From Candidatus Polarisedimenticolia bacterium (GTDB lineage Bacteria > Acidobacteriota > Polarisedimenticolia > Gp22-AA2), in contig JBOGOE010000229.1 in assembly GCA_050747445.1 (NCBI GenBank), positions 2,511 to 66,510 on the forward strand: 64,000 bases of DNA, given 5' to 3'. Shown piece by piece: positions 7,001 through 56,905 of the stretch. The position numbers and the translations under genes were made by a program. The first letter of the stretch is position 1; each line of letters begins with the position of its first letter. The notes beneath the pieces are model-generated. The model did not search any database, was not told the origin of the DNA, and saw nothing but the letters and a program-made list of their open reading frames with translations.

Positions 7001-7914
7001 ACGATCAGCCCGTCTGTCCCGACCCGTCCGCGGATCAATCGGCGAACCCATCGGTCCGGTTTGACGGCGACTCCGGATCTCCTCTGGTGGCCGTGCTGCA
7101 GCCGGACACTTCCACGCTCGGCGTCTTTCTGCCGGCCGGGCGCGGCATCTGCTCCGGCGGAATCAATGACGGCAACCCCTGCGTCCGCAGGCTCCCCACG
7201 GATGATTGCCCCGGCGGGACCTGCGGCGCGGTGGCCGACCTGGTGCCTCCTCCTGGCCATCCCGATCCGCTGCCGGTGCCCGGAGGAACCCCTTCCGACC
7301 TCCTGTTCGTCGACCTGAATCGCGACGGCCTGCTGGATCTGGTCGCGGCGTCGCGGGACGACGGCGACCCGGCCACTCCGGGGGTGACCTTCTACCTCGG
7401 GATCGGCAACGGACTCTTCTACACCGATCCCACCTTCCACCCCGCGGGATTCGAGGGGGACTTCACCCTGGTCGGCGCGGGCCGCTTCACCGCGAACTCC
7501 GGGTTCTTCCCGGACCTCATCCTGTTCGACGAGATCGGCGCGGCGCCGGTCGTACTGACAAACGTCGTCCGGGAGCGGGCCGACATCGACGGCTCGGGGC
7601 GGGTCGACGGTGTCGATCTGGCCTACCTGGCCCGCGCCTTCGGGGCGGTGCGCGGCGAGGACTTCACCATCCTGGGACCCTCCGACGGGGTTCTCGACGG
7701 CACCCTGCTGCAGACGGGGAGCGGTCCCGATCGAAGGGTGGTCGGCAGCGGCGTAGAATCGATCGGACAGGACCTGGTGAAGGGACAGTTCTGCGACGGC
7801 GCCCTGGATCCACTGAGCGGCGCCTACGGGCTTCCGGTGGATATCGACCTTGACGGTCTGGTCGATGGCGAAGACCTGGCGCTCCTGGCCGCACTCTTCG
7901 GATCGTCCCTGTGA
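4072..7914 (+). CDS. Giant secreted FG-GAP/VCBS-repeat protein with thrombospondin type-3-like Ca-binding repeats and two C-terminal dockerin-like repeats
   Basis: 1280 aa; signal-like N-terminus (WWLLATTCTAALPVAAA). Repeated FG-GAP-like motifs (DFDRDGLQDL, DFNGDGLVDLAV, DLDGDLLPDLAIADF). TSP3-like motifs (DGDGIANGLDNCPNVYNPAVAGSQTDTDANGIGDQCE, DNCPTRYNP, DNCPFEFNPNQEDGDDPDDGVGDQCE). C-terminal dockerin-like pairs (DIDGSGRVDGVDLAYLARAFG; DIDLDGLVDGEDLALLAALFG). Confidence 0.75.
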   Translation: MMASDRDSRNLLPRFLHGPAWWLLATTCTAALPVAAALLEPRPGPIDRPLYLVADDFDRDGLQDLMIANFQGGVLTLLLSRGDGTFDPHPDSPFAVGTAAVGLSTSGPVQILVAELNPFDADGDGIANGLDNCPNVYNPAVAGSQTDTDANGIGDQCEVGIRDAGGMLIGTIDTDSDGIPDYDFLASTPALDNCPRHPNSGQEDTEMAEGPDTMCATADDRPDLFGPDNQCGGGDDRTGDGVGEACAASPDLVIVEASLGGPSGSGIMRIRVNNGSGGFLARASKITGAGTSAGALGDFDGDGLLDAAISISGADRVTLFEGLANGEFGTESALNAGDGPQGLAVADFNGDGLVDLAVANRTSGTVGLYHSTGTALPPDPTSTLATHPQPTLLLAGNLDGDLCADLVVLTQASDGLCAGGMENGNPCTTNADCPPDSVTPSPVCAPGPAPDHGIVEVFTNPAMAPACAPTLLVATSLGPGRRPAGGLLRDLDGDLLPDLAIADFSGGGDGALLLLAGGGDGTFGIPVAFAPPLQMLARNPAAVAAIDYDDSGDPDLAVLGFANNRVELMHNGGALASFTMAGTSPASIWKDVAALAAIPADASAGNDAVLVQRIPARLSSLSGAGNGFFRPLADFPLDQPASATGAVVGDFRRDNRLDLAVLDETGSSLSIVTGVAGGGFGERDSVPLPAPPVRGAGGTLYNDTGDFDRDGVPDLLDNCPTRYNPPGCTVTDVECAVEVLCTDTGHANFSPTDCPQDPMTPTQCDSDNDGIGDHCQLLSAACQGLDSDGDGVLDYDPSPTATVRLDNCPFEFNPNQEDGDDPDDGVGDQCEGTCASNLVCVGGGNANQACISPSDCVAGLPDLVTVGRGSGGPDGTVTLLQGDGSGSLRQSAASPLTGFVEPAAALLGGFTFDCPVPVFFLTCASRSTTDLVVAERRNLGDSGDDTLSVLQGDGLGDFNPVATVSTQGNPGKLILANDQPVCPDPSADQSANPSVRFDGDSGSPLVAVLQPDTSTLGVFLPAGRGICSGGINDGNPCVRRLPTDDCPGGTCGAVADLVPPPGHPDPLPVPGGTPSDLLFVDLNRDGLLDLVAASRDDGDPATPGVTFYLGIGNGLFYTDPTFHPAGFEGDFTLVGAGRFTANSGFFPDLILFDEIGAAPVVLTNVVRERADIDGSGRVDGVDLAYLARAFGAVRGEDFTILGPSDGVLDGTLLQTGSGPDRRVVGSGVESIGQDLVKGQFCDGALDPLSGAYGLPVDIDLDGLVDGEDLALLAALFGSSL

Positions 7915-7927
7915 GGGACGGAGCGCG

Positions 7928-9028
7928 TCACTCCGCCTCTCCCGGGATCATGTTGTAGTAGAAGCAGAACGCGACCCCCTCGCTGTCGTGTGGGAAGTTC
8001 TCGGGCAGGGGGGGCAGCGGGTCGCTCGCACGCAGGGCATCCGCCGCCGCGCGGTCGAGAGGGGGCACGGAGGAGGACCGCAGGCGCCGGAACTCTCCGA
8101 GCCTCCCGTCACGCGCGATCCGGATGTGCCAGCAGACGTAGCCCCGGATTCCCTCCCGCGCGGCCAGGGGATAGCGGGCAAGCCAGTTGTTCCGCACGAT
8201 CACGTAGATCTGGCGCGCGTAATCCCCCCAGGGGAATTCCTGGGTATCGAACGAGAGGCTCCCCTCGGCCTCGCCCCGCAGAAATCCCGGATTATTAAAG
8301 GTGAACTTGAACTCGCCGGGCCGATAGTCCGAGAGGGCCTCGTCGATCCGACGTCTCCCTTCACCCTCTCCGGATTCTCCGCCACCCGCCCCCTCCCGGC
8401 CCCCGGCTCCCCCCGCCATGGTCCCTTCCCGACCCGTTCCGGCCCCCTCCCGCGGGGCGACCCCCTCCGACTCGCGCCCGACCCCCTCCCGCGGGCCGGC
8501 CGCGGCCGCGACCTCCGCGCCGGGTCCGGGGGCATCCGTCGCGCCGCCCGGCTCCTCACGTGGCGGTACCGGCGTGTCCTGTCCCTCGGGCAGTTCGGGG
8601 TCGGGACGGACCCGATCACGCGTCTGGCCGACGGAATGAGGATCCGGTGTCAGGAGGGACGCATCGGGGGGCGGCCTGGTCTCCTGGCGCGCCCGGCGAT
8701 TCCGATCCGAGAGCAGGCGGGCGTCCGGGTTTTCGGCGACCGGCGTGTCGTCCGGGATCTTGACGTAGGTGAACTCCAGCGGGATTGAATCGCGGGGTTC
8801 CTGTTTTTTTGCGACCTCCTGGCCGGATGACGGCGCGGCCGGAGCGGGGACCGGCTGGGCCGCGATCGCCCGGGGAACGAGCCAGGCACGCATCCCGTCG
8901 GGAATGTGCCGCGGCACGTACAACAGCAGGAATGCCGCGACCAGATGGACCGCGGCGGAGGCGATCACCGCCTCCGCCCGGCTCACCGACGGCGCGGGGC
9001 GCTCCGGCGGCTCCTGAAGCGACAGCAT
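7928..9028 (-). CDS. TonB-family-like protein: N-terminal TM anchor, Pro/Glu/Gly-rich spacer, TonB C-terminal-like domain
   Basis: Start chosen at MLSLQEPP (cat 9026-9028) just before TM helix AVIASAAVHLVAAFLLLYV. The C-terminus (IRGYVCWHIRIARDGRLGEFRRLRSSSVPPLDRAAADALRAS) resembles the TonB_C fold. The ORF upstream of 9028 overlaps the beta-lactamase-like gene and is low-complexity. Confidence 0.5.
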   Translation of the reverse strand: MLSLQEPPERPAPSVSRAEAVIASAAVHLVAAFLLLYVPRHIPDGMRAWLVPRAIAAQPVPAPAAPSSGQEVAKKQEPRDSIPLEFTYVKIPDDTPVAENPDARLLSDRNRRARQETRPPPDASLLTPDPHSVGQTRDRVRPDPELPEGQDTPVPPREEPGGATDAPGPGAEVAAAAGPREGVGRESEGVAPREGAGTGREGTMAGGAGGREGAGGGESGEGEGRRRIDEALSDYRPGEFKFTFNNPGFLRGEAEGSLSFDTQEFPWGDYARQIYVIVRNNWLARYPLAAREGIRGYVCWHIRIARDGRLGEFRRLRSSSVPPLDRAAADALRASDPLPPLPENFPHDSEGVAFCFYYNMIPGEAE

Positions 9029-9066
9029 CTCCAAAGGCGCTCCTGTGGTCCGGCCGGCGCCGGCAC

Positions 9067-10146
9067 TCAGCGGGCGGCGATGGCGTGGAATGCGCGACGC
9101 ACGCTGTTCATTCTCATGTCCCGGAATTCCGGGTGGACGCGGTTCGTGAGCAGGATGAAAATGCGCCGGGACTTCGGGTCGATCCAGAGGGAGGTGCCGG
9201 TGAACCCCGTGTGCCCGAATGCCGCCCGGGAAAGGGCGGGGCCGGCGCTGCTGCCCGGAGTCGACGCGATCTGGAATCCGACCGACCGGTCCTCCTGCAG
9301 GCCTCCCGTGAGGTTGCTCCGGAACAGGCGACGCTCCCCCTCTTCGAGCAATCCCCGGCCGGCCGGAAGGAATTCCCGCGCCAACCGGAACACGGCGCGC
9401 GCCGTTCCGAACAGCCCCGCGTGTCCGCTCACCCCCTCCAGCGTGAAGGCATTGTGGTCGTGCACCGCACCCCGGATGATCCCGTCGCGCCACCCATTGT
9501 AGCGGTCGCCCGCGGGGCCGGCGAGGTGACGCTCCCGCGCATTGCCGCGCTCGGTGGCGGCGATCCGCGGTCTCAGGGTCGCCGGTGGGCGGAACATCAG
9601 GGCTCGAAGACCGAGCGGTCGCGCCACCAGGCGCCGGAACAGCCGATCGAGGGACGCACGCGCCGCCCGCTCGAGCGCGAACCCCAGGAGGATGTAACCC
9701 GGGTCGGAATAGACAACCTGCGTCCCCGGCCGACCTGCCAGCGGCATTCGCCTCAGGTACCCGATCCTCCCCGCCCGCTCGCCCCGGCGGGCGTGCAGGT
9801 AGAGCGGGGCCCAGGCGGGAAGACCCGAACGGTGCGTCAGCAGGTCCAGGAGGGTGATCCGCTCGCGGCCATCCCCCCCCGTCCATTCGGGAAGGTGCCT
9901 GGACAGGCGATCGTCGAGACGCAGCGCGCCGCATCGCTGCAGCAGGACCGCCAGCAGACCGGTGGCCAGCGGTTTGGTCAGGGAGGCCAGATCGTACAGC
10001 GTGGCCGTGGTCACCGGCACCGGGCGCGGTGTCACGACCGCATCCCCGGCCGCCCCGGCCGCGAGGACGCGCGCCCCCTCGGCGATCAGGTACGAGGCAC
10101 CGGGAAAGGAGCCCGCGGCGATCTGCTTCTCGAGGAAGGCCAGCAT
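9067..10146 (-). CDS. Beta-lactamase family serine hydrolase (class C / PBP-like)
   Basis: SxxK motif ASLTKPL, HRSGL, GHTGFTG (KTG-like) motifs. Start at MLAFLEKQ (cat 10144-10146). Confidence 0.75.
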   Translation of the reverse strand: MLAFLEKQIAAGSFPGASYLIAEGARVLAAGAAGDAVVTPRPVPVTTATLYDLASLTKPLATGLLAVLLQRCGALRLDDRLSRHLPEWTGGDGRERITLLDLLTHRSGLPAWAPLYLHARRGERAGRIGYLRRMPLAGRPGTQVVYSDPGYILLGFALERAARASLDRLFRRLVARPLGLRALMFRPPATLRPRIAATERGNARERHLAGPAGDRYNGWRDGIIRGAVHDHNAFTLEGVSGHAGLFGTARAVFRLAREFLPAGRGLLEEGERRLFRSNLTGGLQEDRSVGFQIASTPGSSAGPALSRAAFGHTGFTGTSLWIDPKSRRIFILLTNRVHPEFRDMRMNSVRRAFHAIAAR

Positions 10147-10174
10147 CGCGGTGGACCGACGCAAAGGGACGCCC

Positions 10175-11095
10175 CTACCGCGCGCCGGCGATCTGTCCCA
10201 CGATGCGCAGGGCGGTGCGCAGGGCGCGCACCCCTTCGGGAGCCTCGACGACCGGCGTGTCGCCGCCCCGCACGCGCCGGACGAACGCCCGCAGCTCGAC
10301 GGCGAGCGGTTCCTCACGTTCGACCGGGAGGGTTTCGCGGACGATCTCCGGCCGCCCCCCGGCGCGCCGCTCCAGGGAGTAGACGGTCGCCTCCTGCTGG
10401 GCGTAATCGAGCGACAGATAGGCGTTCGGCTCGAACACGCGGAGCTTGCGTACCCGATCGGTGCTGATCCGGCTGGCGGTCACGTTGGCGACGCACCCGT
10501 CGGCGAAACGCAGGCGGGCATTGGCGATGTCCACCTTGTCGGTCAGGGCGCTCACCCCCACGGCATCCACCGAGACCAGCTCGGAGGGGACCAGGCTCAG
10601 GATGACGTCCAGATCGTGGATCATCACGTCCAGGACGACGTCCACGTCGGTGCTCCGCCCGGGGAAGGCGCCCAGACGATGGGCCTCGATGAACCGGGGC
10701 CGGCGGATCCTCGCGGCAGCCGCGCGGACGACCGGATTGAATCTCTCCGTGTGCCCGACACACAGCAGTCGCCCCGCCCGGCGCGCCGCCTCCATCATCG
10801 ATTCCGCCTCCTCCAGGCTCGGGGCCATCGGCTTCTCCACGAGGACTGCCAGACCTCGACCGAGGAGTTCGCGCGTCACTGCGGCGTGCGCCGAGGTCGG
10901 CACCGCCACGGTGACCGCGTCGAGTTCGCGCGGCAGGTCGGCGTGGCCGGCCAGCGCCGGGACGCCGTGGCGCGCCCCGACCGCGGCCGCCCGATCCGGG
11001 GAGAGGTCCACCACGGCGCAGAGTCGCGCCTCCGGCAGGGTGGCGAGGATCCTGGCGTGGTGCTGTCCGAGGCTGCCGACTCCGACCACCGCCAC
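10175..11095 (-). CDS. Gfo/Idh/MocA family NAD-dependent oxidoreductase, GnnA-like by position after lpxA
   Basis: Rossmann N-terminus VRVAVVGVGSLGQHHARIL, EKP motif (VLVEKPMA), dimerisation domain. Start uncertain (GTG at 11093-11095 chosen); the ORF extends to 11548 but overlaps lpxA. Confidence 0.65.
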   Translation of the reverse strand: MAVVGVGSLGQHHARILATLPEARLCAVVDLSPDRAAAVGARHGVPALAGHADLPRELDAVTVAVPTSAHAAVTRELLGRGLAVLVEKPMAPSLEEAESMMEAARRAGRLLCVGHTERFNPVVRAAAARIRRPRFIEAHRLGAFPGRSTDVDVVLDVMIHDLDVILSLVPSELVSVDAVGVSALTDKVDIANARLRFADGCVANVTASRISTDRVRKLRVFEPNAYLSLDYAQQEATVYSLERRAGGRPEIVRETLPVEREEPLAVELRAFVRRVRGGDTPVVEAPEGVRALRTALRIVGQIAGAR

Positions 11096-28735: not shown

Positions 28736-29949
28736 CAGCCCGTCGCGAGCAGTCCGCCGCGGCGGAGGAACTCCGTGATCTGGGCTTCCTGGTGCTCCCA
28801 CTCGAGCAGGAAGGCCGCCCCGACCTCGTAACGGCCCGCCTGCCCTTCGATCTCCTCGACGCGCACCACCCGGCCCCGGAGGGTCAGCCGCGCCCGGTCC
28901 CGGGCGTCCTGGCAGACGATGGTCACTTCCTCCCCGAGGACGTAGGCGCGGTCGCTGTCGAACAGCAACCCGCTGCGGCTGATGTTGCGTGGCTCGCTCC
29001 CCTCGTCCGGGGACGTCGCGTCCCGCGTCGCGTCCGCCGGTCCCACCCGGATCTGAACGCCACGCCCCCGCGTCTCGAAGCGGATGAAATTCCGCCGCTC
29101 GCGATAGTAGACCCCCACGGTATTGCCGCCCCGCGCCTTGGCCTGGTGCATCGCCTCCTCGCTCCGGCGGAGCAGGCGGTCGGCGACCGTCGCGTCGTCG
29201 GGGTACTGCGACATGCCGAGGGTCACGGTCATGCCGATCGGCCGGCCATCGATGTCCCGCCGCAGGAAGTGACGCTCGATCTCCTTGCGGATCCGCTCGG
29301 CCACCAGGAACGCCCCCATCCGCTCGGTCTCCGGAAGGATGAGCCCGAACTCCTCGCCCGCGATCCGCGCCGCCATGTCGATGTCGCGGATCTTGTTCTT
29401 CAGGAGAATCGCCACCTCGCGCAGGAGGATGTCGCCGACGAGCTCGCCGTACCGCTCGTTTGTCTCGCGGAAGTTGTCGAGATCGACGTACAGGACGCAC
29501 AGGTTGAGTTCGTACCGCTTGGCCCGGCGGGTCTCCTTCTGGAGGGCGGTGAGGAACTGGCGGGCGTTCCAGAGTCCCGTCGCTCCGTCCACGGGTGACG
29601 AAGGGTCCGGCCGTTCCTCGAAGGCCAGGTCGATCAGGCGCGGCTGGGTCAACTGGCGGTTGACGTTGACGAAATAGTCCAGGACCGCCACGCGCAGACC
29701 GACGTCCCGCTGCAGCCGGGCGGCCAGGGTCCGGCGGTGGGACAGCACCCCCTCCCAGTGACGGCGGGCCTCGGACTCCTCGAAGGGCAGACCGGTCAGG
29801 ATCAGCAGGAGCGCGGCGTATACCTGGAGGCCGCTCTGCGTGCGGATCTGGTCCAGCCGCCTCAGGATCCGCTCCTCGTTGTGAGCGTCCTCCTTCAGGA
29901 CGCCGACCAGCTCGTCCTTGTAGCGGGTGGCCTCTTCCAGCGTGATCAC
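28735..29949 (-). CDS. Diguanylate cyclase-like GGDEF (AGEEF variant, I-site RDID present) fused to C-terminal PilZ domain
   Basis: GGDEF-domain blocks (LYVDLDNFRETNERYG, RIAGEEFGLILPET, RxxD = RDID). PilZ motifs RRNFIR and NISRSG. GTG start 29947-29949 overlaps TGA of upstream paralogue (GTGA). Confidence 0.75.
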   Translation of the reverse strand: MITLEEATRYKDELVGVLKEDAHNEERILRRLDQIRTQSGLQVYAALLLILTGLPFEESEARRHWEGVLSHRRTLAARLQRDVGLRVAVLDYFVNVNRQLTQPRLIDLAFEERPDPSSPVDGATGLWNARQFLTALQKETRRAKRYELNLCVLYVDLDNFRETNERYGELVGDILLREVAILLKNKIRDIDMAARIAGEEFGLILPETERMGAFLVAERIRKEIERHFLRRDIDGRPIGMTVTLGMSQYPDDATVADRLLRRSEEAMHQAKARGGNTVGVYYRERRNFIRFETRGRGVQIRVGPADATRDATSPDEGSEPRNISRSGLLFDSDRAYVLGEEVTIVCQDARDRARLTLRGRVVRVEEIEGQAGRYEVGAAFLLEWEHQEAQITEFLRRGGLLATG

Positions 29950-31085
29950 GACCGGTCCCCCGGGACGGCCGCCGGCCGGCCGGCCGGACCGGCCCCGGGG
30001 AGATCGGCGACCAGATCGGCGAGCCTTCCGCGCGCCCCCGGCTGCGGCAGGAAGCTCACCGCCGCGACCGACCCGCCCCCCGCGACCGGCCGGCCGCTGC
30101 GCACGACACGGGAGCCGAGCACCATCACCCGGGAGCGGACCGCCGATCCGCGCAGCGCGAGACGGATCGCGGCGCCCCGGGGCAGCACGTCCTGCGTCGC
30201 CAGGAGCGCGCCGCCGAACGACACGTCCTCCACCCGGGCCTCGGCGCGCCGCCCCGCGTGCTCCAGGGAGGCGGTCATGCCCCCGGGCGGCCGTACCCGC
30301 GCGTGGGCGCGTCGCTCGGATCGCGCGACTTCGACCCGCCCGCCTCCGTCGCAACGGGCACGCCGGAGCGCCTCGCGCGCTCCCTCCTCCAGCTCCCGCA
30401 CCGGGACCGGGGTTTCACCTGGCGCCCGGCCGGCGACGCCACCGCTCCAGGAGACGCCCGTGGCGTCGACCAGGGCGATCCGGTAGCGTTCGGCCGCGCG
30501 CCGCGCGGCCGCCGCATCCGTACAGGGAAGGAGGACGGTCAGCACGTCGCCGGCGCCGCGGACCCAATCGCTGTCGCGGGTCACATGGCGGAGGAGGTCC
30601 GGACCGCCCTGCTCCGCGCCGTCCGATGGCGGATCGGGCGCCAGCGCGACCCAGGCCACAGGTCGTCTCGATCGGTCGGCGCGATGCCGTTCCAGCCGGC
30701 CGCGCTCCTCGTCCATTCCGGCCGGAGCGCCGGGCCCGGAACCGTCGGCAGCGGCCGTGCCGCCCTGCCGGATCACCGGCCCCCCGGGGAGTCCTTCGCC
30801 CCCCCGCAGGTGGTCGAGCGCCGCCACGACGAATCCCGGATCCCGCCCGAGCACCGACTCGAGCCGTGCGCGGTGGGTCTCGATTTCGAGGAAGGCGGTG
30901 CGGGCGCGGGGTTCCGGCAGATCGAGCGCGAGCAGGTCACGGACCAGGCAGCGGAACGGCTCGACGCGGTGACGGGTCCCGAGGGCGAACACGGCGCTGC
31001 AGAGCGCTTCGCCACGCAGCCCTGGATCCGCCAGGGCCCCGCGGAGCTCAAGGTGAACGGCGTGCGCGGCGTCCTCCGGGCTCAC
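29946..31085 (-). CDS. Paralogous protein with degenerate GGDEF-like domain (RGAGDVL in place of GGDEF) and C-terminal PilZ domain
   Basis: N-terminal about 100 aa is similar to that of 28735..29949 (LLALDLPEPRARTAFLEIETHRARLESVL vs LILTGLPFEESEARRHWEGVLSHRRTL). Central VRGAGDVLTVLLPCTDAAAARRAAERYR aligns to the GGDEF C-terminal half. PilZ motifs GRRAEAR and DVSFGG. Confidence 0.65.
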   Translation of the reverse strand: MSPEDAAHAVHLELRGALADPGLRGEALCSAVFALGTRHRVEPFRCLVRDLLALDLPEPRARTAFLEIETHRARLESVLGRDPGFVVAALDHLRGGEGLPGGPVIRQGGTAAADGSGPGAPAGMDEERGRLERHRADRSRRPVAWVALAPDPPSDGAEQGGPDLLRHVTRDSDWVRGAGDVLTVLLPCTDAAAARRAAERYRIALVDATGVSWSGGVAGRAPGETPVPVRELEEGAREALRRARCDGGGRVEVARSERRAHARVRPPGGMTASLEHAGRRAEARVEDVSFGGALLATQDVLPRGAAIRLALRGSAVRSRVMVLGSRVVRSGRPVAGGGSVAAVSFLPQPGARGRLADLVADLPGAGPAGRPAAVPGDRS

Positions 31086-31185: not shown

Positions 31186-31214
31186 TTGACAATTACTTGA
31201 CTGCGCCTTATATT
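31186..31214 (+). promoter_or_regulatory. Near-consensus sigma70-type promoter TTGACA-N17-TATATT for prkA, in an AT-rich island
   Basis: ttgaca 31186-31191, 17-nt spacer, tatatt 31209-31214. GAGGA Shine-Dalgarno (31236-31240) before ATG 31246. The surrounding 31170-31245 is strikingly AT-rich for this genome. Confidence 0.55.
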
Positions 31215-31245: not shown

Positions 31246-33381
<2,136 letters not shown>

Positions 33382-33466
33382 AGGACGTGACGGGCCACGC
33401 CCCTGAGGGGCCGCGGCGGCCGGCCGCCCGCTCCGCAGGGGCTTTCGTTTCAGGGGCCTCCCGGCC

Positions 33467-34573
33467 ATGATTCTGCGGATCGAAGGCGACCACAGCCGCT
33501 TCAAGCAGATCGTCCGCGGCAAGATCAAGAAGGAGCTGCGGAAGTACATCAGCAGCGGAGAGCTGATCGGCCGGCGCGGCAAGGACCTGATCTCCATCCC
33601 CCTCCCGCAGATCAAGATCCCCCAGTTCGTCTATGGCCAGAAGCAGACCGGCGGCGTCGGCCAGGGCGAGGGCGCGGTCGGCACCGTCCTGGGCGCCGGG
33701 GAGATGGAGGGGGGCCAGCAGCAGGCGGGGAACACCCCGGGGGAGCACCTGCTGGAGGTCGACATCAGCCTCGACGAACTCGCCGCGATGCTGGGCGAGG
33801 AGCTCGAGCTGCCGGCCATCAAGCCCAGGGGGCGCAAGAACATCCTGTCGCACAAGGACCGTTACACGGGGATCGCGCATTACGGGCCGGAGACCCTCCG
33901 GCACTTCAAGCGGACCTACAAGGAGACCCTCAAGCGCAGCATCGCGACCGGCACGTACCGCCCGGATTTCCCAATCCTGATCCCGATCCGGCAGGACAAA
34001 CGCTACCGCTCCTGGAAGTCCGCGGTCATGCCGCAGGCCAACGCCGCGATCCTCTACATGATGGACGTGTCGGGGTCGATGGGCGAGGAGCAGAAGGAGA
34101 TCGTGCGGATCGAGTCCTTCTGGATCGACACCTGGCTGCGCCATCACTACAAGGGGGTCGAGATCCGCTACATCATCCACGACGCGGAGGCGCGCGAGGT
34201 CGATCGCGAGACCTTCTACCACACGCGCGAGTCGGGCGGGACGGTGATCTCCGCCGCCTACAAGCTGTGCGCCCGCATGATCGACACCGACTACCCCGCC
34301 GACGAATGGAACGTCTACGGGCTGCACTTCTCCGACGGCGACAACTGGTCCCAGGGAGACACCGAGGAGTGCGTCAACATCCTGAAGGGGCAGATCCTGC
34401 CCCGCGTGAATCTGTTCTGCTACGGACAGGTCGAGAGCCCCTACGGGACCGGGCAGTTTCTCGTGGACCTCAAGGAGGCCTACGGCGACGACGAGCGGGT
34501 CGCGCTCTCGAAAATCGAGAACAAGGACGGCATCTACCAGTCGATCAAGGACTTCCTGGGGCGGGGGCGATAG
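33467..34573 (+). CDS. yeaH: YeaH/YhbH family protein (DUF444, VWA-like)
   Basis: Conserved DUF444 blocks ([44 protein letters not shown]). Canonical partner of prkA. Confidence 0.9.
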
Positions 34574-34577
34574 CGCC

Positions 34578-36067
<1,490 letters not shown>

Positions 36068-36068
<1 letters not shown>

Positions 36069-37786
36069 TGAGCGAGCCCGCAGCTCCCGGATCGTCCGCC
36101 CAGTCCCAGGCATCGCCGGCACCGGTCGCCGCGGCGTCCGGCGTCCGCCAGTCGGTCTGGGCGCTGGCCGGCGGCAAAGGAGGCGTGGGTCGTTCCCTGT
36201 TGTGCGCCAATCTCGGGATCCAGCTGGCCCGCATGGGGCGTCGTGTCGTCCTGGTCGACCTCGACCTGCAGGGCAGCAACCTGCAGTCCTATCTCGGGTT
36301 CCAGCGGATGCCCCGCACCCTCGCGGACTTCGCGTCCGGCAAGGTCCGCCTGCTGTCGGAGATCGCGTGCGAGACGCCGACCGGGCATCTGCGGCTGGTC
36401 GGCGGGCTGCAGCGGGGCGAGGCCGGCGACGACCCCGTGGCCTTCGTGCGCCAGGTCGCCGCGCAGTTCGGAACGCTGCATGCCGACCAGGTGCTGGTCG
36501 ACTGCGGGTCGGGCCGGTTCCCGGCCACCATCGCCGCATTTGCGGAGGCGACTGTCGGCATCCTGGTCACCACGCCGGAGCCCGCCGCGCTCGAAGGGAC
36601 CTACCTGTTCACCGAGTCCTACCTGCGCTGGTGCCTGGTCCGCGCTTTGACCGGCGAACGGATGGCGGAGGTGGATCGGCGTCTCAAGGACGGCGGTCAC
36701 GACACCGCGCGCGCGTCGTTCCGCGGATTCATGACCCGGCTGGGGGCCATCGATCCCGACGCCCGCGACACCATCGCCGGCGTGGTCCGCCGGACGCGCC
36801 TGGAGCTGGTGTTGAACCAGGTGCGCGGCGAGACCGACGAGGAGGCGACGGCCTCGTTGCAGAGCGGCTTCCGCAAGTGTTTCGGGCTCAACCTCCAGAC
36901 CGCCGGCGCCATCGAGCACGACCTGTCGATCCTGCAGTCGGTGCAGAAGCGGCGCCCCCTGTCCCAGCAGTATCCCAACGCCGCTTCCACCAAAGGGATC
37001 GCGCGGGCCGCGACCCGGCTGCTGGCGGTGTCCGGCGCTCCCTTGCGCGAGGCCGACGAGGAGTGGGAGGACCTCGACGCCATCGATCACTATCGCGTCC
37101 TCGAGGTGGTCCCCAAGGCCTCCCCAAAGGAGGTCCAGTCGGCCTATCAACTCCTGAAGAAAACCTACGACCCCGAGACGACCGTGCTCGCCCCCCTCAT
37201 GGACGCCCCCGGACTGCGCGAGATGCAGGCGCGGATCGAGTCGGCCTACCGCACGCTGATCTTCCTGGAAAGCCGCTCGGATTACGATCGCCGGCTCCTG
37301 GACAAGGGTCGCGATCGCGACCGCCAGCCCGGGGCCCCCTCTCCGGCGGCCGCTCCGGCCGCACCGGTCGAGCCGGCCGGCGAAGGGGGGACGCTGGAGA
37401 TGGCGGGTGGGAATTCCCCCCCCATGACGCCCCCACCCGCGCCCGCGTCGACCGCCACGAGCGACCGGGCGACAGTATCCCCGGAGGAGCCGGACGCGAC
37501 CTCGCCGACGCCGGTGACCGCCGCCACGGCCGCCCGGGCCCCCCCGGGGTCCCCGCCGGACAGGCGATTCCCGCCAGCGGCGGCGAGCTCCGCGACGAAC
37601 GCCAGAGGCGGCGCCAGACGCTGGAGGGAATTGCCGAGAAGACCAAGATCCGGCGCGCCTACCTGCAGGCCATCGAGGAGGAGCGTTTCGGAGACCTGCC
37701 GGCCGCCGTCTTCGTCCGCGGCTTCATCAGGGAGTACGCGCGCAGCCTGGGGCTCCCCGGCGACGAAGTGGTCCGGCAGTACATGA
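36068..37786 (+). CDS. ParA/MinD-like P-loop protein with Walker-A Lys-to-Arg substitution (GGKGGVGRS), degenerate J-like domain (HPD replaced by YDP) and Pro/Ala/Thr-rich linker; 3' end likely mis-framed
   Basis: ATG 36068 overlaps spoVR TGA. Deviant Walker A aligns to MinD/ParA xKGGxGK[ST] but has R at the catalytic Lys. J-like DHYRVLEVVPKASPKEVQSAYQLLKKTYDPE. After about 37545 this frame becomes implausible while the -1 frame encodes an HTH. Confidence 0.55.
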
Positions 37787-37857
37787 AACGCCACCGGGAC
37801 TGGCAGGAGTCGCGCCCGCGCCCTCCGGGCAGCCCGGATCCCTTTTCCAGCAACTGA
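37537..37857 (+). CDS. RodZ-like HTH_25 (XRE-type) domain segment in the -1 frame, with no own start codon; probable C-terminus of the 36068 gene
   Basis: ELRDERQRRRQTLEGIAEKTKIRRAYLQAIEEERFGDLPAAVFVRGFIREYARSLGLPGDEVVRQYM matches the RodZ/HTH_25 N-terminal pattern. No ATG/GTG/TTG start in frame. Immediately follows a C7 tract (37539-37545). Confidence 0.5.
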   Translation, partial: GPPGVPAGQAIPASGGELRDERQRRRQTLEGIAEKTKIRRAYLQAIEEERFGDLPAAVFVRGFIREYARSLGLPGDEVVRQYMKRHRDWQESRPRPPGSPDPFSSN

Positions 37858-37979: not shown

Positions 37980-39365
37980 ATGATCGACAGCGATCCGATT
38001 GCGCACGAGGAGGATCTGCGCGGCTATTTCGACCTGGGGTCGAAGCCGCGCGAGCGCTGGGGCGTCGGGGTGGAGTACGAGCGCCTCGGAGTGTTCCGCG
38101 ATACGGGCCGGGCCGTGCCGTACGAGGGGCACGTCTCGATCGAAAGCATGCTCCGCACCCTGGTGCGTGACGCCGGCTGGGAGGCCGAGGAGGAAGGCGG
38201 CCACAGCCTCGCGTTGCGGCGCGGCGGTACCCGTCTGACCCTCGAGCCCGGCGCCCAGGTGGAGCTGTCCTCGGCGGTGCACCGCACGCTCCCGTCCCTC
38301 GACGAGGAGCTGCGCGGGTTCGTCGACCTCCTGGAGGCGGCGTCCCGCCCGTTCGGATTCACCTTCATCGGTCTGGGCGTGCACCCGATCTCGCCGTTGG
38401 ACGAGATCGGATGGATCCCCAAGAAACGCTACGCCATCATGCGCGACTACCTGCCGAAACGCGGGGCCAGGGCGCACGTCATGATGAAGCAGACCGCCGG
38501 GATCCAGGTCAACCTGGATTACGGCAGCGAAGGGGACGCCGCCGACAAGCTGCGCACCGCCATGGCGCTCTCCCCCCTCCTGACGGCGCTCTATGCGAAC
38601 TCCCCCCTGACCGACGGCAAGCTGAACGGCTTCCTGAGCTGGCGGGCGTGGGCCTGGCGGGAGACCGACCCCGATCGCTGCGGACTCCTCCCCTTCGTGT
38701 TCAAGGACGGCGCCGGGTTCGGCGACTATCTCGAGTACGCCCTCGACGTGCCGATGTTCTTCGTGGTGCGCGGGGACCAGTGGATGCCGGCCAACGGCCT
38801 CACCTTCCGGCGATTCCTCCGGCGGGGTTTCGAGGGACACCGCGCCACGCGGTCCGACTTCGAGCTGCACCTCTCGACGTTGTTTCCGGAGGTCCGTCTG
38901 AAGCACTACATCGAGATCCGCAGCGTCGACTCCGGCGAACCGGCGTCCGCCCTGGCCCTGGCGGCGCTGCTCAAGGGGATCCTCTATGACGGGGCCTCCC
39001 GCCGGGCCGCCTGGGAGCTGGTCCGCGACATGAGCTTCAAGGACCGCGAGCGGCTCCTGGACGAGGTCTGCCGGAGGGGTCCTGCGGCGCGCGTCGTCCT
39101 CCAGGGAGGCCGGCACGAGGCTTCGGGGAAGGTCGGGATCATCGTGCGCGACCTGCTGCTGGAGATCGTCCGGCTGGCGCGGCAGGGACTGAACAATCAG
39201 GGGGCCCCGGGGGAGGAGGCATATCTCGAGGTGCTGGACCGCCGCCTGGGAGGCGAAGGGGGTTGTCCGGGTTTCCGGCTGGCCGCCGACTGGAACGGGG
39301 TCCTCAGGCAGGATCCCCGGCGCCTCGTCGAGGCACTGGCCCCGCCGCTCCCCGGCTCCGGATGA
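37980..39365 (+). CDS. Glutamate--cysteine ligase, GCS2 (plant/proteobacterial) family
   Basis: GCS2 blocks (GVEYERLGV, HPISPLDEIGWIPKKRYAIMRDYLP, QVNLDYGSEGDA, FPEVRLKHYIEIRSVD). Start at MIDSDPIAHE (atg 37980). Confidence 0.75.
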   Translation: MIDSDPIAHEEDLRGYFDLGSKPRERWGVGVEYERLGVFRDTGRAVPYEGHVSIESMLRTLVRDAGWEAEEEGGHSLALRRGGTRLTLEPGAQVELSSAVHRTLPSLDEELRGFVDLLEAASRPFGFTFIGLGVHPISPLDEIGWIPKKRYAIMRDYLPKRGARAHVMMKQTAGIQVNLDYGSEGDAADKLRTAMALSPLLTALYANSPLTDGKLNGFLSWRAWAWRETDPDRCGLLPFVFKDGAGFGDYLEYALDVPMFFVVRGDQWMPANGLTFRRFLRRGFEGHRATRSDFELHLSTLFPEVRLKHYIEIRSVDSGEPASALALAALLKGILYDGASRRAAWELVRDMSFKDRERLLDEVCRRGPAARVVLQGGRHEASGKVGIIVRDLLLEIVRLARQGLNNQGAPGEEAYLEVLDRRLGGEGGCPGFRLAADWNGVLRQDPRRLVEALAPPLPGSG

Positions 39366-40324: not shown

Positions 40325-41160
40325 GCGGCGGACCCCGGGTCGCGATCCAGGGGGAACGCGGCGCTTTCTCCGAGCTGGCAGTCCGTTCGCTGTTCGGCCG
40401 GCGCGCGACCATCGTCCCCTGCCCCGATTTCGACGCCCTGTTCCGCGCCCCGATCGGCGGACGATGCCGCTACGCCCTGGCGCCGGTCGAGAACACCATC
40501 GCGGGGTCGATCCATCGCGTTCACGACCTCCTGCTCGACACGCCGCTCCAGGTGGTCGGCGAGGCGATCGTGCGCGTGGCGCACGCGCTGGTGGCCCTGC
40601 CGGGTGTTTCGCTCCGTGACGTGCGTCGCGTCTACTCGCATCCGGTGGCGCTGGCGCAGTGCGAGCGCTTTTTCCGCCGCCATCCCGGTCTGACGCGGGT
40701 GGCGACCTACGACACCGCAGGGAGCGTCCGACTCCTGCGGGAGGAGAACGCCCGGGACGCGGCCGCGATCGCCCCGGTCCTGGCGGCGCGGCTGTACCGC
40801 GCGCGGATCCTCCGGACACACCTCGAGGATCACCCCGCGAACTTCACGCGCTTCTTCCTGCTGTCGCGGCGCGGCCGGCCGTCGGGACGGCCGGACAAGA
40901 CCTCCGTCCTGTTCGCCGTGCCGCACGCCCCGGGCGCGCTGTTCCGCTGTATGGGGGTGTTCGCCCTGCGGGACATCAATCTCCTGAAGATCGAGTCGCG
41001 ACCGCTGGTGGGTCGGCCCTGGGAATACGTGTTCCACGTGGACTTCGAGGGCTCGGCGGACGAACCGCGGTGCCGGAACGCGCTCCGTCATCTGCGCGAG
41101 GTCTGCGACTTCGTCCGCCTGCTCGGCTCCTACGCGCGGGCGCGGGCGCCGCGCCGCTGA
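40321..41160 (+). CDS. pheA: Prephenate dehydratase (PDT catalytic + ACT regulatory domain)
   Basis: RVAIQGERGAFSE, TRF (ESRP) motif in LLKIESRPLVGRPWEYVFHVDFEG (ACT). Confidence 0.85.
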   Translation: MSGGPRVAIQGERGAFSELAVRSLFGRRATIVPCPDFDALFRAPIGGRCRYALAPVENTIAGSIHRVHDLLLDTPLQVVGEAIVRVAHALVALPGVSLRDVRRVYSHPVALAQCERFFRRHPGLTRVATYDTAGSVRLLREENARDAAAIAPVLAARLYRARILRTHLEDHPANFTRFFLLSRRGRPSGRPDKTSVLFAVPHAPGALFRCMGVFALRDINLLKIESRPLVGRPWEYVFHVDFEGSADEPRCRNALRHLREVCDFVRLLGSYARARAPRR

Positions 41161-42980
41161 ACCTCGATCCAGGAGCGCACGCGCGCCTCCAGCAGATCGA
41201 GCGGCAGGGCGCCCTGGCCGAGGATCTCGTCGTGGAAGGCCCGCAGGTCGAAGCGCTCCCCCAGGACCCGACGTGCCTCGTCCCGCAGCTCGCGGATCTT
41301 CAGCTCGCCGATCTTGTAGGCCAGCGCCTGCCCCGGGTCGACGATGTACCGGTCGATCTCCACGATGATGTCATGGTCAGTCTTGGCGGCGTTGTCGCGG
41401 AAGAAGGCGATCGATCGCTCCCGGGTCCACCCCAGGGCGTGCATTCCGGTGTCGACCACCAGGCGGATGGCGCGCCACATTTCGTAGGTCAGGCGGCCGA
41501 ACCGGGAGTATGGGTCACCGTACACCCCGAGGTCGTCGCCCAGCCCCTCGGCATAGAGCGCCCATCCCTCGACGTAGGCCGTCGGACCGGTGTGTCTGCG
41601 GAACTCCGGCAGACCTTCCAGCTCCTGGGCCAGGGCGATTTGCAGATGATGACCGGGAACCGCCTCGTGCAGGGTCAGCGCCTCCATCTCCCACTTCGGG
41701 CGGGCGCGGAGATCGTAGGTGTTGACGAAGAAGATCCCGGGTCGGCCCGCGTCCGGGGAGCCCTGCTCGTAGTAGGCGGTGGTCTGGGATTTCTCCGCGA
41801 AGGAAGGGATGGGGTTGACTCCGTACGGCAGCCGCGGGAGGCGTCCGAACAACCGGACCAGTCCCGGGTCGATCCGCTTGGAGATGTCCCGGTACTCCTT
41901 CACGAGCGCCCCGGCCTCGGTGAAGAAGAAGCGTGGGTCGGTGCGCAGAAACTCGATGAACGCGGCGAGGTTCCCCTCGTACCCCGCTTCCTTGCGGACC
42001 GCCTCCATGGCGGCCCGGATCCGGTGGATCTCCCGCAGTCCCAGGTCGTGGATCTGCCGCGGGGTGAGGCGGGTGGTCGTCTGCCGCCGCACCTGGAAGG
42101 CGTACCAGGCTTCGCCGTCGGGCAGATCGCGCAGCGCGATTCCTTCCCGCGCCCCCGCCAGGTAGGTGCCGGCGAGAAAGTCCCGCAGGCGCTCGAATGA
42201 GGGACGGACCGATTCCCGGTAGATCCGGACCGCGTCGGCCCGCAACCGCTCGCGTTCGCCCCCTGGAAGGTCCCCGGGGATGCGGGTGAAGGGCGCGAGC
42301 AGCGGACTCCTCAGGGGATCCTCGACGATCTGGTTTCCGACCTGTCCCGGTACGTCGCGCAGCGCGACCTTGGGCGGCGTGACCCCGCGCCGCAGTCCTT
42401 CGCGCATCAGGACGATGGTCTGATCGACCGCGAGCGGCAGCCGTTCCAGCCGCGCGAGGAGGTCCCGGTAGTCCCTAAGGGTGGCCGCGGGCGCCATCGC
42501 CATGACCAGGGCGGCCTCCTGCTGCACGCCACTCAGCTGGGTGACCGGCATCAGATCCGACGGGAACCGCCGGGCCTCCTGCGCCTCCTCCAGCGACCGG
42601 GAGAACAGGTCGTGGCTCAGCCGCTCCTCCTCGCCGAGGACCTCGCGGCGGATGCTCCGGAGGACGGCCGCCGGTCGTTCCAGGTCCCGTTTGCGCCGCT
42701 CGATCGCCTCGAGCGATCGATCCGTCCAACGATCGCCCTGGCCGGGGAATCCCACGTTCGTCGCGAACTCCGGGAACTCGGTCATCGACTCCCGCCAGGC
42801 CAGGTCGAACAGGCGCCGCAGGCGGGTCCCCTCGTCGAGCCCCTCCCGGTTGGTGCGGAGCGCCTCGTACGCGACGGCGAACCCGCCCGCCGCGCCGTCG
42901 GACGGACCGCGCGTCGAGGCTGCGCTCCCGGGATCGGGCACCCCCAGCATGAGCAGCATCACCGCCAGCCCGCGTCGCAT
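41130..42980 (-). CDS. DUF885 family putative metallopeptidase-like protein, secreted
   Basis: HEAVPGHHLQ motif typical of DUF885. Signal peptide MRRGLAVMLLMLGVPDPGSAAS (start ATG 42978-42980). Confidence 0.7.
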   Translation of the reverse strand: MRRGLAVMLLMLGVPDPGSAASTRGPSDGAAGGFAVAYEALRTNREGLDEGTRLRRLFDLAWRESMTEFPEFATNVGFPGQGDRWTDRSLEAIERRKRDLERPAAVLRSIRREVLGEEERLSHDLFSRSLEEAQEARRFPSDLMPVTQLSGVQQEAALVMAMAPAATLRDYRDLLARLERLPLAVDQTIVLMREGLRRGVTPPKVALRDVPGQVGNQIVEDPLRSPLLAPFTRIPGDLPGGERERLRADAVRIYRESVRPSFERLRDFLAGTYLAGAREGIALRDLPDGEAWYAFQVRRQTTTRLTPRQIHDLGLREIHRIRAAMEAVRKEAGYEGNLAAFIEFLRTDPRFFFTEAGALVKEYRDISKRIDPGLVRLFGRLPRLPYGVNPIPSFAEKSQTTAYYEQGSPDAGRPGIFFVNTYDLRARPKWEMEALTLHEAVPGHHLQIALAQELEGLPEFRRHTGPTAYVEGWALYAEGLGDDLGVYGDPYSRFGRLTYEMWRAIRLVVDTGMHALGWTRERSIAFFRDNAAKTDHDIIVEIDRYIVDPGQALAYKIGELKIRELRDEARRVLGERFDLRAFHDEILGQGALPLDLLEARVRSWIEVQRRGARARA

Positions 42981-55332: not shown

Positions 55333-55785
55333 CTACTGGCCGCTCGTCCCTGCGGGGTTCAGACCGAGCGCTTCGTCGGTGATCAGGCCGATCTTTTCGG
55401 CGCCACCGCCGCGGATCTCGTCCATGACGCCGACGACAAACTGGTACGGGATCTCGTTTTCCGCCTGGAAGAAGACGACCTTTTCGCGCCGCCCCTTCAT
55501 GAGTCCCTCGATCCGCTCCCGGACCGCTCCGGCCCCGCCGGGAATCTCCTCCTGATTCAGGAGGATGACCGGGGATTCCACCGGACCGCGGACGGTGATG
55601 ATGAGCTGCTCAACGACGTCCGTCGGAGCCTCCGCTTCAGTCTTCGGCGGCACCGAAATGTCGAGGGCGCGGCTGAGAAGCGGCGTCACCACCATGAAGA
55701 TGATGAGCAGTACCAGGACGATGTCAACGAAGGGGGTGACGTTGATGTCGGACTTGACGCCGCTGCCTCCGAGTTGCATGGCCAT
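55333..55785 (-). CDS. exbD: Biopolymer transport protein ExbD/TolR
   Basis: INVTPFVDIVLVLLIIFMV TM plus periplasmic domain. Confidence 0.8.
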   Translation of the reverse strand: MAMQLGGSGVKSDINVTPFVDIVLVLLIIFMVVTPLLSRALDISVPPKTEAEAPTDVVEQLIITVRGPVESPVILLNQEEIPGGAGAVRERIEGLMKGRREKVVFFQAENEIPYQFVVGVMDEIRGGGAEKIGLITDEALGLNPAGTSGQ

Positions 55786-55797
55786 GTGCTGTTCCTC

Positions 55798-56235
55798 CTA
55801 CTGCTCGCTGCCCGGCGTCTTCTCGGTGACCAGCGAGACCGTCTCGAACCCGGCGTCGTTGGTCTCGATCATCACCTTGCGGACGTCGCCATACAGCATC
55901 GCCCGGTCCGCCTTGATCAGGACCGACTTCTCCGGCATCCGGTCGTGGATCTCGGTCATCTCGGCCAGGTACTGCTCCCGGGGGATCGGCTTCTTCTGGA
56001 CGAAGATCGACTCTTCGCCGTTGGCCTCGGTTCGCACCGCGACGATGATGGCGTGCGCCTCGTCGTCTTCCTTCTTCTCGGTGTTCTTGGCGAACGGCAG
56101 ATTGACCTGGATCCCCTCCTGCAGCATGGGCGTCACCACCATGAAGATGATGAGCAGCACCAGGCAGATGTCGACGAAGGGGGTCACGTTGATTTCGGAA
56201 TTGAACCCCTTGTTGCTACCGAGCGACGCTGCCAT
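55798..56235 (-). CDS. exbD: Biopolymer transport protein ExbD/TolR (second tandem copy)
   Basis: INVTPFVDICLVLLIIFMV; paralogue of the 55333 gene. Confidence 0.8.
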   Translation of the reverse strand: MAASLGSNKGFNSEINVTPFVDICLVLLIIFMVVTPMLQEGIQVNLPFAKNTEKKEDDEAHAIIVAVRTEANGEESIFVQKKPIPREQYLAEMTEIHDRMPEKSVLIKADRAMLYGDVRKVMIETNDAGFETVSLVTEKTPGSEQ

Positions 56236-56905
56236 GCCCCGTTCCCTGCCGCTTCAGGAAGAAATCGACCAGCTCGGACGACGAGTTGGACATCTCGATC
56301 CCGAAGAATTCGATCTGCCCCTGGAAGTAGTTGAACATCCAGACCGCCGGAATGGCGACCCCCAGGCCGACCGCGGTGTTGATCAGCGCCTCGGCGATCC
56401 CGGCCGAAACCGCCCCGATGCCGCCCGAGCCGCTCATGGCCATGCTGGTGAAGGCGTTGATGATGCCGATGACGGTCCCCAGCAATCCGATGAAGGGGGC
56501 GGTGGAGCCGATGGTCGCCAGCCCGCCGAGTCCGCGCTTCATCTCCGCCGTGGTCAGGGCCGCCGCGCGCTCGACCGCGAGGCGCACCGACTCCACGGCG
56601 TCGTGGCTGGGCTGATCTTCCTTTTCGAACATGAACTGTTGCAGGCCGGCCGCAAGGACCTTTGCCAGGTGGCTCTTGTTGTACCGCTTGGCGGCCTCCA
56701 CCGCCTGACGGTAGTTCCCCTCCCGCAGCGACTTGGTCGCCAGCGGCAGGTAATCGATCGACTGTTTCTTCGCGGCCCGGAAGTACAGGAACCGTTCGAT
56801 GAACAATCCCAGCGAGTAAATCGACATCAGCACCATGAGCATGGCGATGCCCTTCGCGAGGAAGGTCATCTGTCCCCACATTTCAAAAAACGAATGACCC
56901 ATCAT
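56216..56905 (-). CDS. exbB: MotA/TolQ/ExbB proton channel family protein
   Basis: MMGHSFFEMWGQ start (catcat 56900-56905), three TMs, conserved GLLGTVIGII and ALINTAVGL. Confidence 0.85.
   Translation of the reverse strand: MMGHSFFEMWGQMTFLAKGIAMLMVLMSIYSLGLFIERFLYFRAAKKQSIDYLPLATKSLREGNYRQAVEAAKRYNKSHLAKVLAAGLQQFMFEKEDQPSHDAVESVRLAVERAAALTTAEMKRGLGGLATIGSTAPFIGLLGTVIGIINAFTSMAMSGSGGIGAVSAGIAEALINTAVGLGVAIPAVWMFNYFQGQIEFFGIEMSNSSSELVDFFLKRQGTGHGSVAR

Follow-up and report, generated by a model that had tools for sequence, protein, structure and literature searches.

A 64,000-nt stretch of contig JBOGOE010000229.1 from a Candidatus Polarisedimenticolia bacterium (hereafter the window) contains, directly behind spoVR and on the plus strand, a gene for a MinD-like/RodZ-like protein whose reading frame changes at a run of cytosines. 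The region 36068-37857 is one gene and not an open reading frame (ORF) followed by an orphan domain. Its 5′ part (36068..37545), which starts with the ATG at 36068, encodes in the upstream frame a MinD/FlhG-like domain (~36152-37033) with the Walker A motif GGKGGVGRS (36170-36196; Arg codon CGT at 36191-36193), a J-like domain (37085-37288) with DPE at 37169-37177 in the position of the HPD tripeptide and, from ~37325 onwards, a disordered Pro/Ala/Thr linker. The J-like segment of the upstream-frame product reads ...DHYRVLEVVPKASPKEVQSAYQLLKKTYDPE..., and the product contains the motif KKTYDPE, with YDPE at 37166-37177. This part ends with a C7 run (37539..37545), the site of the one-base loss described below, the counterpart of which is C8 in two related assemblies (L001 and L061). 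The 3′ part (37546..37857) lies in the -1 frame and comprises the end of the linker, a RodZ-type helix-turn-helix (HTH) domain of the family HTH_25 (37588-37770), a short tail and the stop codon TGA (37855-37857).

Translation of the upstream frame from the ATG at 36068 gives 572 aa up to a stop at 37784-37786, with the ~70-80 residues after the C7 run being Arg/Pro-rich noise, while the -1 frame, which from ~37560 on encodes a clean helix-turn-helix, reads ...SGGELRDERQRRRQTLEGIAEKTKIRRAYLQAIEEERFGDLPAAVFVRGFIREYARSLGLPGDEV... to the TGA at 37855-37857. No ATG, GTG or TTG was found in this frame in the ~60 codons ahead of the HTH domain. The periodicity of the G+C content at third codon positions (GC3) backs the upstream frame to ~37306 and the -1 frame from ~37585. 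One inserted C results in a protein of 596 aa, for which Pfam returned CbiA/ParA (E 1e-11), DnaJ (PF00226; the whole 63-residue model, marginal with 28.6 bits vs a gathering cut-off of 27.8) and HTH_25 (PF13413; E 4.1e-22, model positions 2-62 of 62), a result well outside what chance would produce. The gene contains a second, upstream homopolymer, a C8 run at 37416-37423. At the C7 tract the linker has a G+C content of 82%; the tract itself is unremarkable in a window of 70% G+C with 24 homopolymer runs of at least 7 bases.

A preliminary description of this region had named the P-loop Arg in GGKGGVGRS, a J-like helix pair lacking HPD (KKTYDPE), the C runs at 37539-37545 and 37416-37423, the Arg/Pro noise behind the first of them, a RodZ/HTH_25 domain in the -1 frame without a start of its own and, upon addition of one C, a fusion of everything into ~595 aa. 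All of this was reproduced here by translation and domain searches, including the matches of the repaired protein to all three proposed domain models. The overlap with spoVR that had been reported was found as well, but in the form TGATG, in which the spoVR stop (36066-36068) and the ATG of the gene (36068-36070) share one base, and not as ATGA.

Orthologous loci and the origin of the frame change

A homologue search covering 5.8 billion proteins yielded 171 significant matches, the best 120 of which were examined. Nearly all of these 120 are single ORFs of 530-630 aa with Pfam matches to ParA, DnaJ and HTH_25, and they originate from metagenomes of Acidobacteriota and Ca. Polarisedimenticolia. 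In addition, a genome scan returned 46 distinct loci (L003-L048), with L003-L029 representing Acidobacteriota. In 25 of 26 loci with an orthologue, the length of the linker is divisible by three and the three domains share one frame, so that the fused ORF, which the preliminary description had suggested looking for among orthologues, is indeed the norm. The sole exception, L016 (a metagenome-assembled genome (MAG) labelled Acidobacteria gp22 AA3; L016:3240-3780), has a deletion of a length not divisible by three that removes the first helix of the HTH domain; since this deletion is unrelated and located inside the HTH, a second frameshift at the same site was ruled out for L016. Two damaged or chimeric database entries were rejected as same-site frameshifts because they are broken at other places: in P0116 the frame shifts inside the J-like domain, and in P0067 the linker runs into unrelated sequence. 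The GC-rich linker seems to be generally error-prone or indel-prone in metagenome assemblies. In 13 of the 26 loci it is devoid of any homopolymer of at least 6 bases, and the poly-C runs are merely Pro codons of a Pro-rich linker. As to the other end of the gene, the Joint Genome Institute (JGI) call for P0001 (L001:7869-8001) uses an internal TTG start that cuts off the Walker A motif, with the spoVR-overlapping ATG being in frame; database lengths for this gene family are in part start-codon artefacts.

The JGI contig L001 shares 91.6% nucleotide identity with the window over 17.7 kb, and no closer relative was found in scans of genome contigs and metagenome contigs. The PrkA, the truncated SpoVR and the frameshifted product of the window had no exact counterpart in the protein collection searched. 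Both L001 and an independent re-assembly from Logan (L061) have C8 and an intact ORF of 602 codons, starting in L061 at the ATG that overlaps spoVR. When the window was aligned codon-wise to L001, ...T-P-P-E-A-T-T-G-Q-G-I-P-A-S of L001 matched ...A-P-P-G-V-P-A-G-Q-A-I-P-A-S of the repaired window, with one base missing in or next to the C tract. Together with a gap-free contig from a sister assembly, which ends at 37524, this alignment brackets the shift to 37525-37560. Read in the -1 frame, the shifted tail has a ratio of nonsynonymous to synonymous substitution rates (dN/dS) of 0.18 relative to L001 at a dS of 0.30, compared to 0.13 for the rest of the gene, and the numbers of derived changes in the gene (2 in the window, 3 in L001) reveal no excess. 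As the tail is thus under purifying selection, the loss is either very recent or not real. We consider it likely that the gene is normal and single and that one C was lost from a C8 run in this assembly, which would make the frame change a local lesion or error and not programmed recoding; such a loss within a linker of 82% G+C would throw the HTH domain into the -1 frame. The missing base would be either a homopolymer miscall or a strain-level null allele born from slippage, two possibilities that we rate about equal.

These two possibilities have to be seen together with a second lesion. The reading frame of spoVR/ycgB (34578..36068, plus strand, 496 codons) is broken at codon 52 (34731-34733) by a nonsense codon, TAA, that is unique to the window. 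At this codon the sister MAG encodes Tyr (TAC), and L001 has TAT; the remainder of the window gene restarts at the ATG at 34752 and lacks the first 58 codons. The sister MAG (GCA_050747565.1), the best stand-in for sequencing reads, covers the operon with two contigs, namely JBOGOD010000164.1 (L002; window 31330-34679) and JBOGOD010000199.1 (L060; window 34441-37524). L060 differs from the window by 7 mismatches and no gaps (99.8% identity) and confirms the C8 run at 37416-37423 as well as the Arg codon of the P-loop; a Walker A Lys hidden by miscalled bases, a possibility raised in the preliminary description, is therefore not what lies there. The same contig ends 14 nt ahead of the C7 tract, and this break suggests that the site is hard to assemble, owing to coverage loss or length heterogeneity. 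L002, which carries the A2V allele of the window's spoVR, ends 52 nt before the TAA, and the sister assembly is in this way fragmented exactly around both lesion sites. Since the 239-nt overlap of L002 and L060 contains 4 single-nucleotide polymorphisms, the sister sample holds at least two closely related haplotypes at the operon.

Only spoVR and the MinD-like/RodZ-like gene are disrupted among the 11 genes compared with L001, the other nine being intact, and none of the other 16 homopolymer runs of at least 6 bases in the 17.7 kb shows a frame-disrupting length difference. In spoVR, 7 derived residues fall to the lineage of the window and its sister and 2 to that of L001, a difference that is not significant; A2V is the only one of the 7 not shared with the sister contig. 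Further broken genes were found neither in a rough GC3 frame scan of the whole window nor in a homologue comparison within 28.2-45.9 kb. Two spots flagged by GC3 turned out to be normal gene pairs: at 55333-56253 there are two ExbD genes in tandem, and at 7928-10317 a beta-lactamase-like and a TonB-like gene lie side by side.

On the one hand, it is conceivable that the organism has C8 and that the consensus dropped one C, a pure sequencing or assembly artefact to which we would give somewhat less than an even chance. The homopolymer context, with C8 in the closest strain, and the break of the independent same-species assembly 14 nt upstream, a hint of trouble with coverage or errors there, favour this explanation, and the shifted frame is still under purifying selection. 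However, the assembly is not generally prone to homopolymer errors, judging from the other such runs, and the change in spoVR from TAC/TAT to TAA is a substitution and as such an atypical consensus error. Indeed, two lesions in adjacent genes next to nine intact ones are improbable as random consensus errors; this speaks against a mere error and in favour of a real, recent loss-of-function haplotype, in which spoVR Y52* and the change from C8 to C7 inactivate both genes and which we hold to be possible to the same degree. According to a rough estimate, an adjacent double lesion would arise by chance with a probability of a few per cent (a target of ~3 kb in 64 kb). The coupling of the two genes, the presence of at least two haplotypes in the sister sample, the window's A2V allele on L002 and the surplus of derived residues in spoVR (7 vs 2, not significant) all fit such a haplotype, as does the growth advantage that yeaG, yeaH and ycgB mutants of other bacteria show under some conditions (bioRxiv 10.1101/072470). 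It could have arisen because the pathway was selected against or by neutral decay once the polar nonsense mutation had occurred. Nevertheless, no built-up decay is visible (dN/dS 0.07-0.18), and neither lesion is present in any second assembly; the sister contigs end shortly before both sites or have the intact allele. Of the origins proposed in the preliminary description, sequencing error and a slippage-derived allele are consequently both still in play, while programmed -1 frameshifting was not supported.

This last explanation, in which the C tract would serve -1 frameshifting, transcriptional slippage or ON/OFF switching and the cells would make a truncated ATPase-J protein next to a full-length protein with the HTH domain, nevertheless has features in its favour that weigh against an isolated lesion. 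In the upstream frame the tract reads C_CCC_CCG, formally an X_XXY_YYZ heptamer, and a stable RNA hairpin (37563..37635, plus strand; pairing GCGAUUCCC.GCCAGC ... GCUGG.AGGGAAUUGC) is located 16 nt 3′ of it within the HTH coding sequence, where the 100-nt segment 37547-37646 folds at -50 kcal/mol (z -3.5); strain-specific slippage is on these grounds formally possible. Moreover, C7 and C8 both occur among close strains, and one assembly breaks at the site. However, the hairpin is specific to the window, as in 19 orthologues the counterpart segments adopt unrelated shapes that are no more stable than those of shuffled sequence, and with no relevant RNA element found at the tract in Rfam it is probably fortuitous. 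Its spacer of 16 nt is also too long compared with the 5-9 nt at which stimulatory structures follow -1 frameshift sites. Furthermore, a slippery site of G:C pairs only does not resemble the known bacterial -1 sites such as A_AAA_AAG, and slippage on Pro codons typically goes in the +1 direction and would leave a deletion uncorrected. Only one assembly has the frameshift, no orthologue needs it (the exception L016 being unrelated), the poly-C tract is missing at 13 of the 26 loci and the nearest strain has an in-frame C8. We therefore regard programmed recoding or phase variation as very improbable, and the slippage-prone contingency tract that had also been put forward in the preliminary description did not prove to be conserved.

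Even less credible, to the point of being negligible, is the idea of two genuine genes, an ATPase-J protein terminating in the linker and, translated independently of it, a small HTH protein. It derives some plausibility from related loci in Myxococcota MAGs (L033, L034, L035, L038, L039, L040, L043, L044, and L047), where the module is formed by two translationally coupled genes, a 350-aa ATPase and a J-like-HTH protein of ~200 aa, the start of which overlaps the stop of the former (ATGA/GTGA/TGATG). These loci place the natural split point between the ATPase and the J-like domain, however, and not between the J-like domain and the HTH as in the window, so that they do not provide the separate HTH gene considered in the preliminary description either. 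In the window itself, the absence of a start codon from the ~60 codons before the HTH domain and the continuation of the upstream frame for ~80 noise codons past the tract also speak against two genes.

Conservation, fold and relatives of the encoded protein

With the gene taken as a single one, the repaired protein could be compared with its family. Across 116 aligned sequences, all 114 homologues with a residue at the P-loop position have Arg, whereas the signature Lys is largely retained (K37: 107 K, 6 R) and the switch-I Asp pair (D64/D66) and the Walker-B Asp (D145) are conserved. The position of HPD reads DPE (D in 105, P in 92 and E in 100 of the 116 sequences). Judging from this alignment, the P-loop Arg and the lost HPD are family traits and not signs of local degeneracy. 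From the N-terminus, the domains are a P-loop domain of MinD/FlhG/FleN fold carrying KGG[VA]GR[ST], a J-like domain with DPE, a disordered, Pro/Ala-rich linker of 50-125 residues and a C-terminal HTH_25 domain.

Structure prediction with AlphaFold2, likewise proposed in the preliminary description and based on the alignment of 116 sequences, gave a model with a mean predicted local distance difference test score (pLDDT) of 85.9 and a predicted template modelling score (pTM) of 0.70. The pLDDT exceeded 90 over the MinD-like domain, the J-like region was helical, and only the linker (423-491) was disordered. A Foldseek search with the N-terminal domain returned FleN-AMPPNP (5j1j) as best match with a target-normalised TM-score of 0.87; the top 30 include FleN, FlhG, MinD, and Soj, at a probability of 1.00 and target-normalised TM-scores of 0.70-0.87. 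This MinD/FleN-like fold is in line with a profile search against the PDB, in which FleN was matched at E 4.5e-24, J-domain structures of DNAJA3 were also found, and the C-terminus matched the N-terminal domains of RodZ (2wus_R, 4gqm, 3fym).

The family thus shares its fold, the signature Lys, the switch-I Asp pair and the Walker-B Asp with FleN, FlhG and MinD, and JGI auto-annotates its members as 'FlhG'. In contrast to these proteins, the P-loop Lys of the deviant Walker A motif KGGxxGK[ST] is invariably Arg in the subfamily of the window, and where MinD and FlhG have a C-terminal membrane-targeting helix, the window protein has the J-like domain, the linker and the HTH. A flagellar or min gene context is also missing, and the repaired protein scores far below the cut-offs of the MinD models TIGR01968 (55.9 vs 212.9 bits) and TIGR01969 (62.9 vs 201.75 bits). 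The likeness to RodZ consists of a full-length HTH_25 domain, with the N-terminal domains of RodZ as nearest structures, including the chain 2wus_R from the co-crystal of T. maritima RodZ and MreB. However, the HTH of RodZ is N-terminal and accompanied by a transmembrane helix and a periplasmic domain, whereas that of the window protein is C-terminal and followed by ~25 hydrophilic residues; the scores for the RodZ equivalog models (42.5 vs 375 and 24.6 vs 208 bits) are accordingly below the cut-offs. To DnaJ/Hsp40 and to J-like proteins without HPD the protein is similar by its Pfam DnaJ match and the helical prediction, but throughout the subfamily DPE stands where DnaJ/Hsp40 proteins have HPD, in the stretch that joins helices II and III. 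It is well established that HPD is required for stimulation of the Hsp70 ATPase, and as the tripeptide is absent, such stimulation is not expected of the J-like domain studied here. The NCBIfam model NF047398 (AAA_KGGVGR, 'KGGVGR-motif variant AAA ATPase') has the KGGVGR Walker A motif in common with the window protein and matches it locally at residues 30-80. Nevertheless, the score of 44.2 bits falls short of the 90-bit cut-off, the alignment covers only model positions 4-54 of 190 (51 aligned), and the model represents a different lineage with the same substitution. With the NCBIfam models for AAA_KGGVGR, MinD and RodZ all below cut-off, the earlier impression that no described family fits has held up. 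A role in a defence system was considered and rejected, PADLOC having given merely a local P-loop match.

Beyond the close orthologues, a search with a hidden Markov model (HMM) in 1.84 billion cluster representatives (50% identity) found 1,289 that match the family profile at E <= 1e-30. The best 149 of these clusters were classified with local HMMs for the three modules, and all three were present in 66 of them (~45%). The P-loop residue of these 66 members is K in 34, R in 8, T in 9, A in 2, C in 1, and V in 1, with 11 lacking a recognisable Walker A motif, which points to several replacements of the P-loop Lys (by R, T, A, C, V) in the wider family. HPD was found in none of 70 J-like segments. 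In metagenomes of Acidobacteriota and Myxococcota, the combination of the three domains is common, and the source names of the diverse members are generic ('FlhG', 'helix-turn-helix domain-containing protein', 'P-loop NTPase').

The HTH domain of RodZ binds MreB and not DNA, and in T. maritima RodZ the substitutions Y53A and Y57A disrupt MreB binding (PMC6946637). These two residues align with F549 and F553 of the repaired protein, predicted MreB contacts with a conservation of at least 90% each. On the analogy of RodZ, MreB appears to be a more likely partner of the HTH than DNA. The DNA-binding role assigned to it in the preliminary description is consequently doubtful, given that HTH_25 is the MreB-binding domain of RodZ and that the two contact aromatics are nearly invariant. 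Similarly, the view of the protein as catalytically dead had been no more than deduced from the P-loop, and the conserved signature Lys, switch-I Asp and Walker-B Asp do not bear it out.

Operon context and possible function

The gene is preceded by prkA, yeaH and spoVR. A sigma-70-like promoter (31186..31214, plus strand; TTGACA-17-TATATT, 11/12 matches) just upstream of prkA is, from its sequence, likely to be the promoter of the operon. The intact prkA (31246..33381, plus strand) encodes the PrkA AAA and PrkA C-terminal domains identified by Pfam, and its product is 99% identical to that of L001 (dN/dS 0.02). Next to it lies the likewise intact yeaH/yhbH (DUF444; 33467..34573, plus strand), the exact protein of which is known from Ca. 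Polarisedimenticolia MAGs (NCBI MGH9749860.1/MGH9797320.1). Downstream of the MinD-like/RodZ-like gene, a GCS2-family carboxylate-amine ligase (37980..39365, plus strand) is the conserved neighbour. L001 and all Acidobacteriota loci (L003-L029) with contigs that reach far enough share the order prkA-yeaH-spoVR-gene-GCS2, down to ~40% identity of the MinD-like/RodZ-like protein. In L063, a relative that has 37% identity and a normal P-loop (KGGVGKS) directly follows prkA-DUF444-spoVR, with GCS2 missing. The position as fourth gene behind prkA-yeaH-spoVR, given in the preliminary description, is thus well borne out.

The triad PrkA/YeaG-YeaH (DUF444)-SpoVR/YcgB, which the gene adjoins with an overlap of the spoVR stop, usually forms one operon and shows strong mutual cofitness, while its biochemistry is unknown (bioRxiv 10.1101/072470). 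No description of a fourth, MinD-like/RodZ-like member of the triad was found in the literature. The linkage is seen at Acidobacteriota-type loci only and not in Myxococcota.

On the other side of prkA, a GGDEF/PilZ gene pair (28738-31085, minus strand) is divergently oriented; L001 has the same arrangement, and the distant locus L063 has one divergent GGDEF/PilZ gene in place of the pair. These genes may link the operon to c-di-GMP. Polarisedimenticolia-type operons were also found under MAGs labelled Binatia, Cryosericum, Verrucomicrobiia, and Dongiaceae (L009, L021, L023, and L026), labels that are probably due to binning contamination; the PrkA proteins of L021, L023, and L026 are 87-93% identical to that of the window, and L009 lacks prkA. 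Elsewhere in the window, a minus-strand DUF885 gene (41157-42968) differs from L001 by a -1/+1 indel pair 6 nt apart (42905-42911), so that the frame is altered locally, over two codons, and then restored. An ORF of 1,280 aa (4072-7914, plus strand) is, according to its translation, rich in FG-GAP/VCBS-like and thrombospondin-type-3-like Asp repeats; a 711-aa FG-GAP protein was observed near a Polyangia homologue (L062).

Directly supported are the single gene with its domain content, the conservation of Arg and DPE, the prkA-yeaH-spoVR synteny and the isolated one-base loss. For the function of the protein, we infer a model in which the MinD-like domain would form a nucleotide-dependent sandwich dimer with slow or absent ATP turnover, owing to Arg in place of the P-loop Lys. 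Through this dimer, two RodZ-type HTH domains on flexible tethers would be offered to MreB or, less likely, to DNA, and the J-like domain without HPD would act as a partner-binding or docking module and not as an Hsp70 activator. In Acidobacteriota, the gene would be co-transcribed and translationally coupled with prkA-yeaH-spoVR, and because of this predicted coupling a role in the same stress/starvation pathway is probable.

Several points temper this model. No paper on the family and no characterised member was found in the literature, and an Arg in place of Lys need not abolish ATP binding or hydrolysis. As HTH_25 belongs to the XRE clan, binding to DNA is also possible. Furthermore, prkA is absent from the surroundings of the gene in Myxococcota, where the neighbours encode a GAF histidine kinase, an RluD-like pseudouridine synthase and ClpX/DksA.

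A more far-reaching version, which we regard as rather unlikely, would see in the protein a positioning or scaffold ATPase tethered to MreB or the nucleoid that works as fourth component of PrkA-YeaH-SpoVR, and in the paired null alleles a real, co-inactivated haplotype. In a weaker variant, the C7/C8 tract may switch the HTH domain on and off in the lineage of the window. If the far-reaching version were true, a haplotype with spoVR and the gene co-inactivated would be genetic evidence that both act together.

For annotation, these results mean that one frameshifted (pseudo)gene should be called instead of an ATPase and an orphan domain, and that no recoding should be claimed. Judged by architecture and synteny alone, the family is a genuine, uncharacterised variant of MinD/ParA with a RodZ-type appendage and a conserved link to prkA-yeaH-spoVR. 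If the proposed role is true, it would provide a physical link from the PrkA-YeaH-SpoVR triad to the cell-shape cytoskeleton, which would be a new and testable idea.

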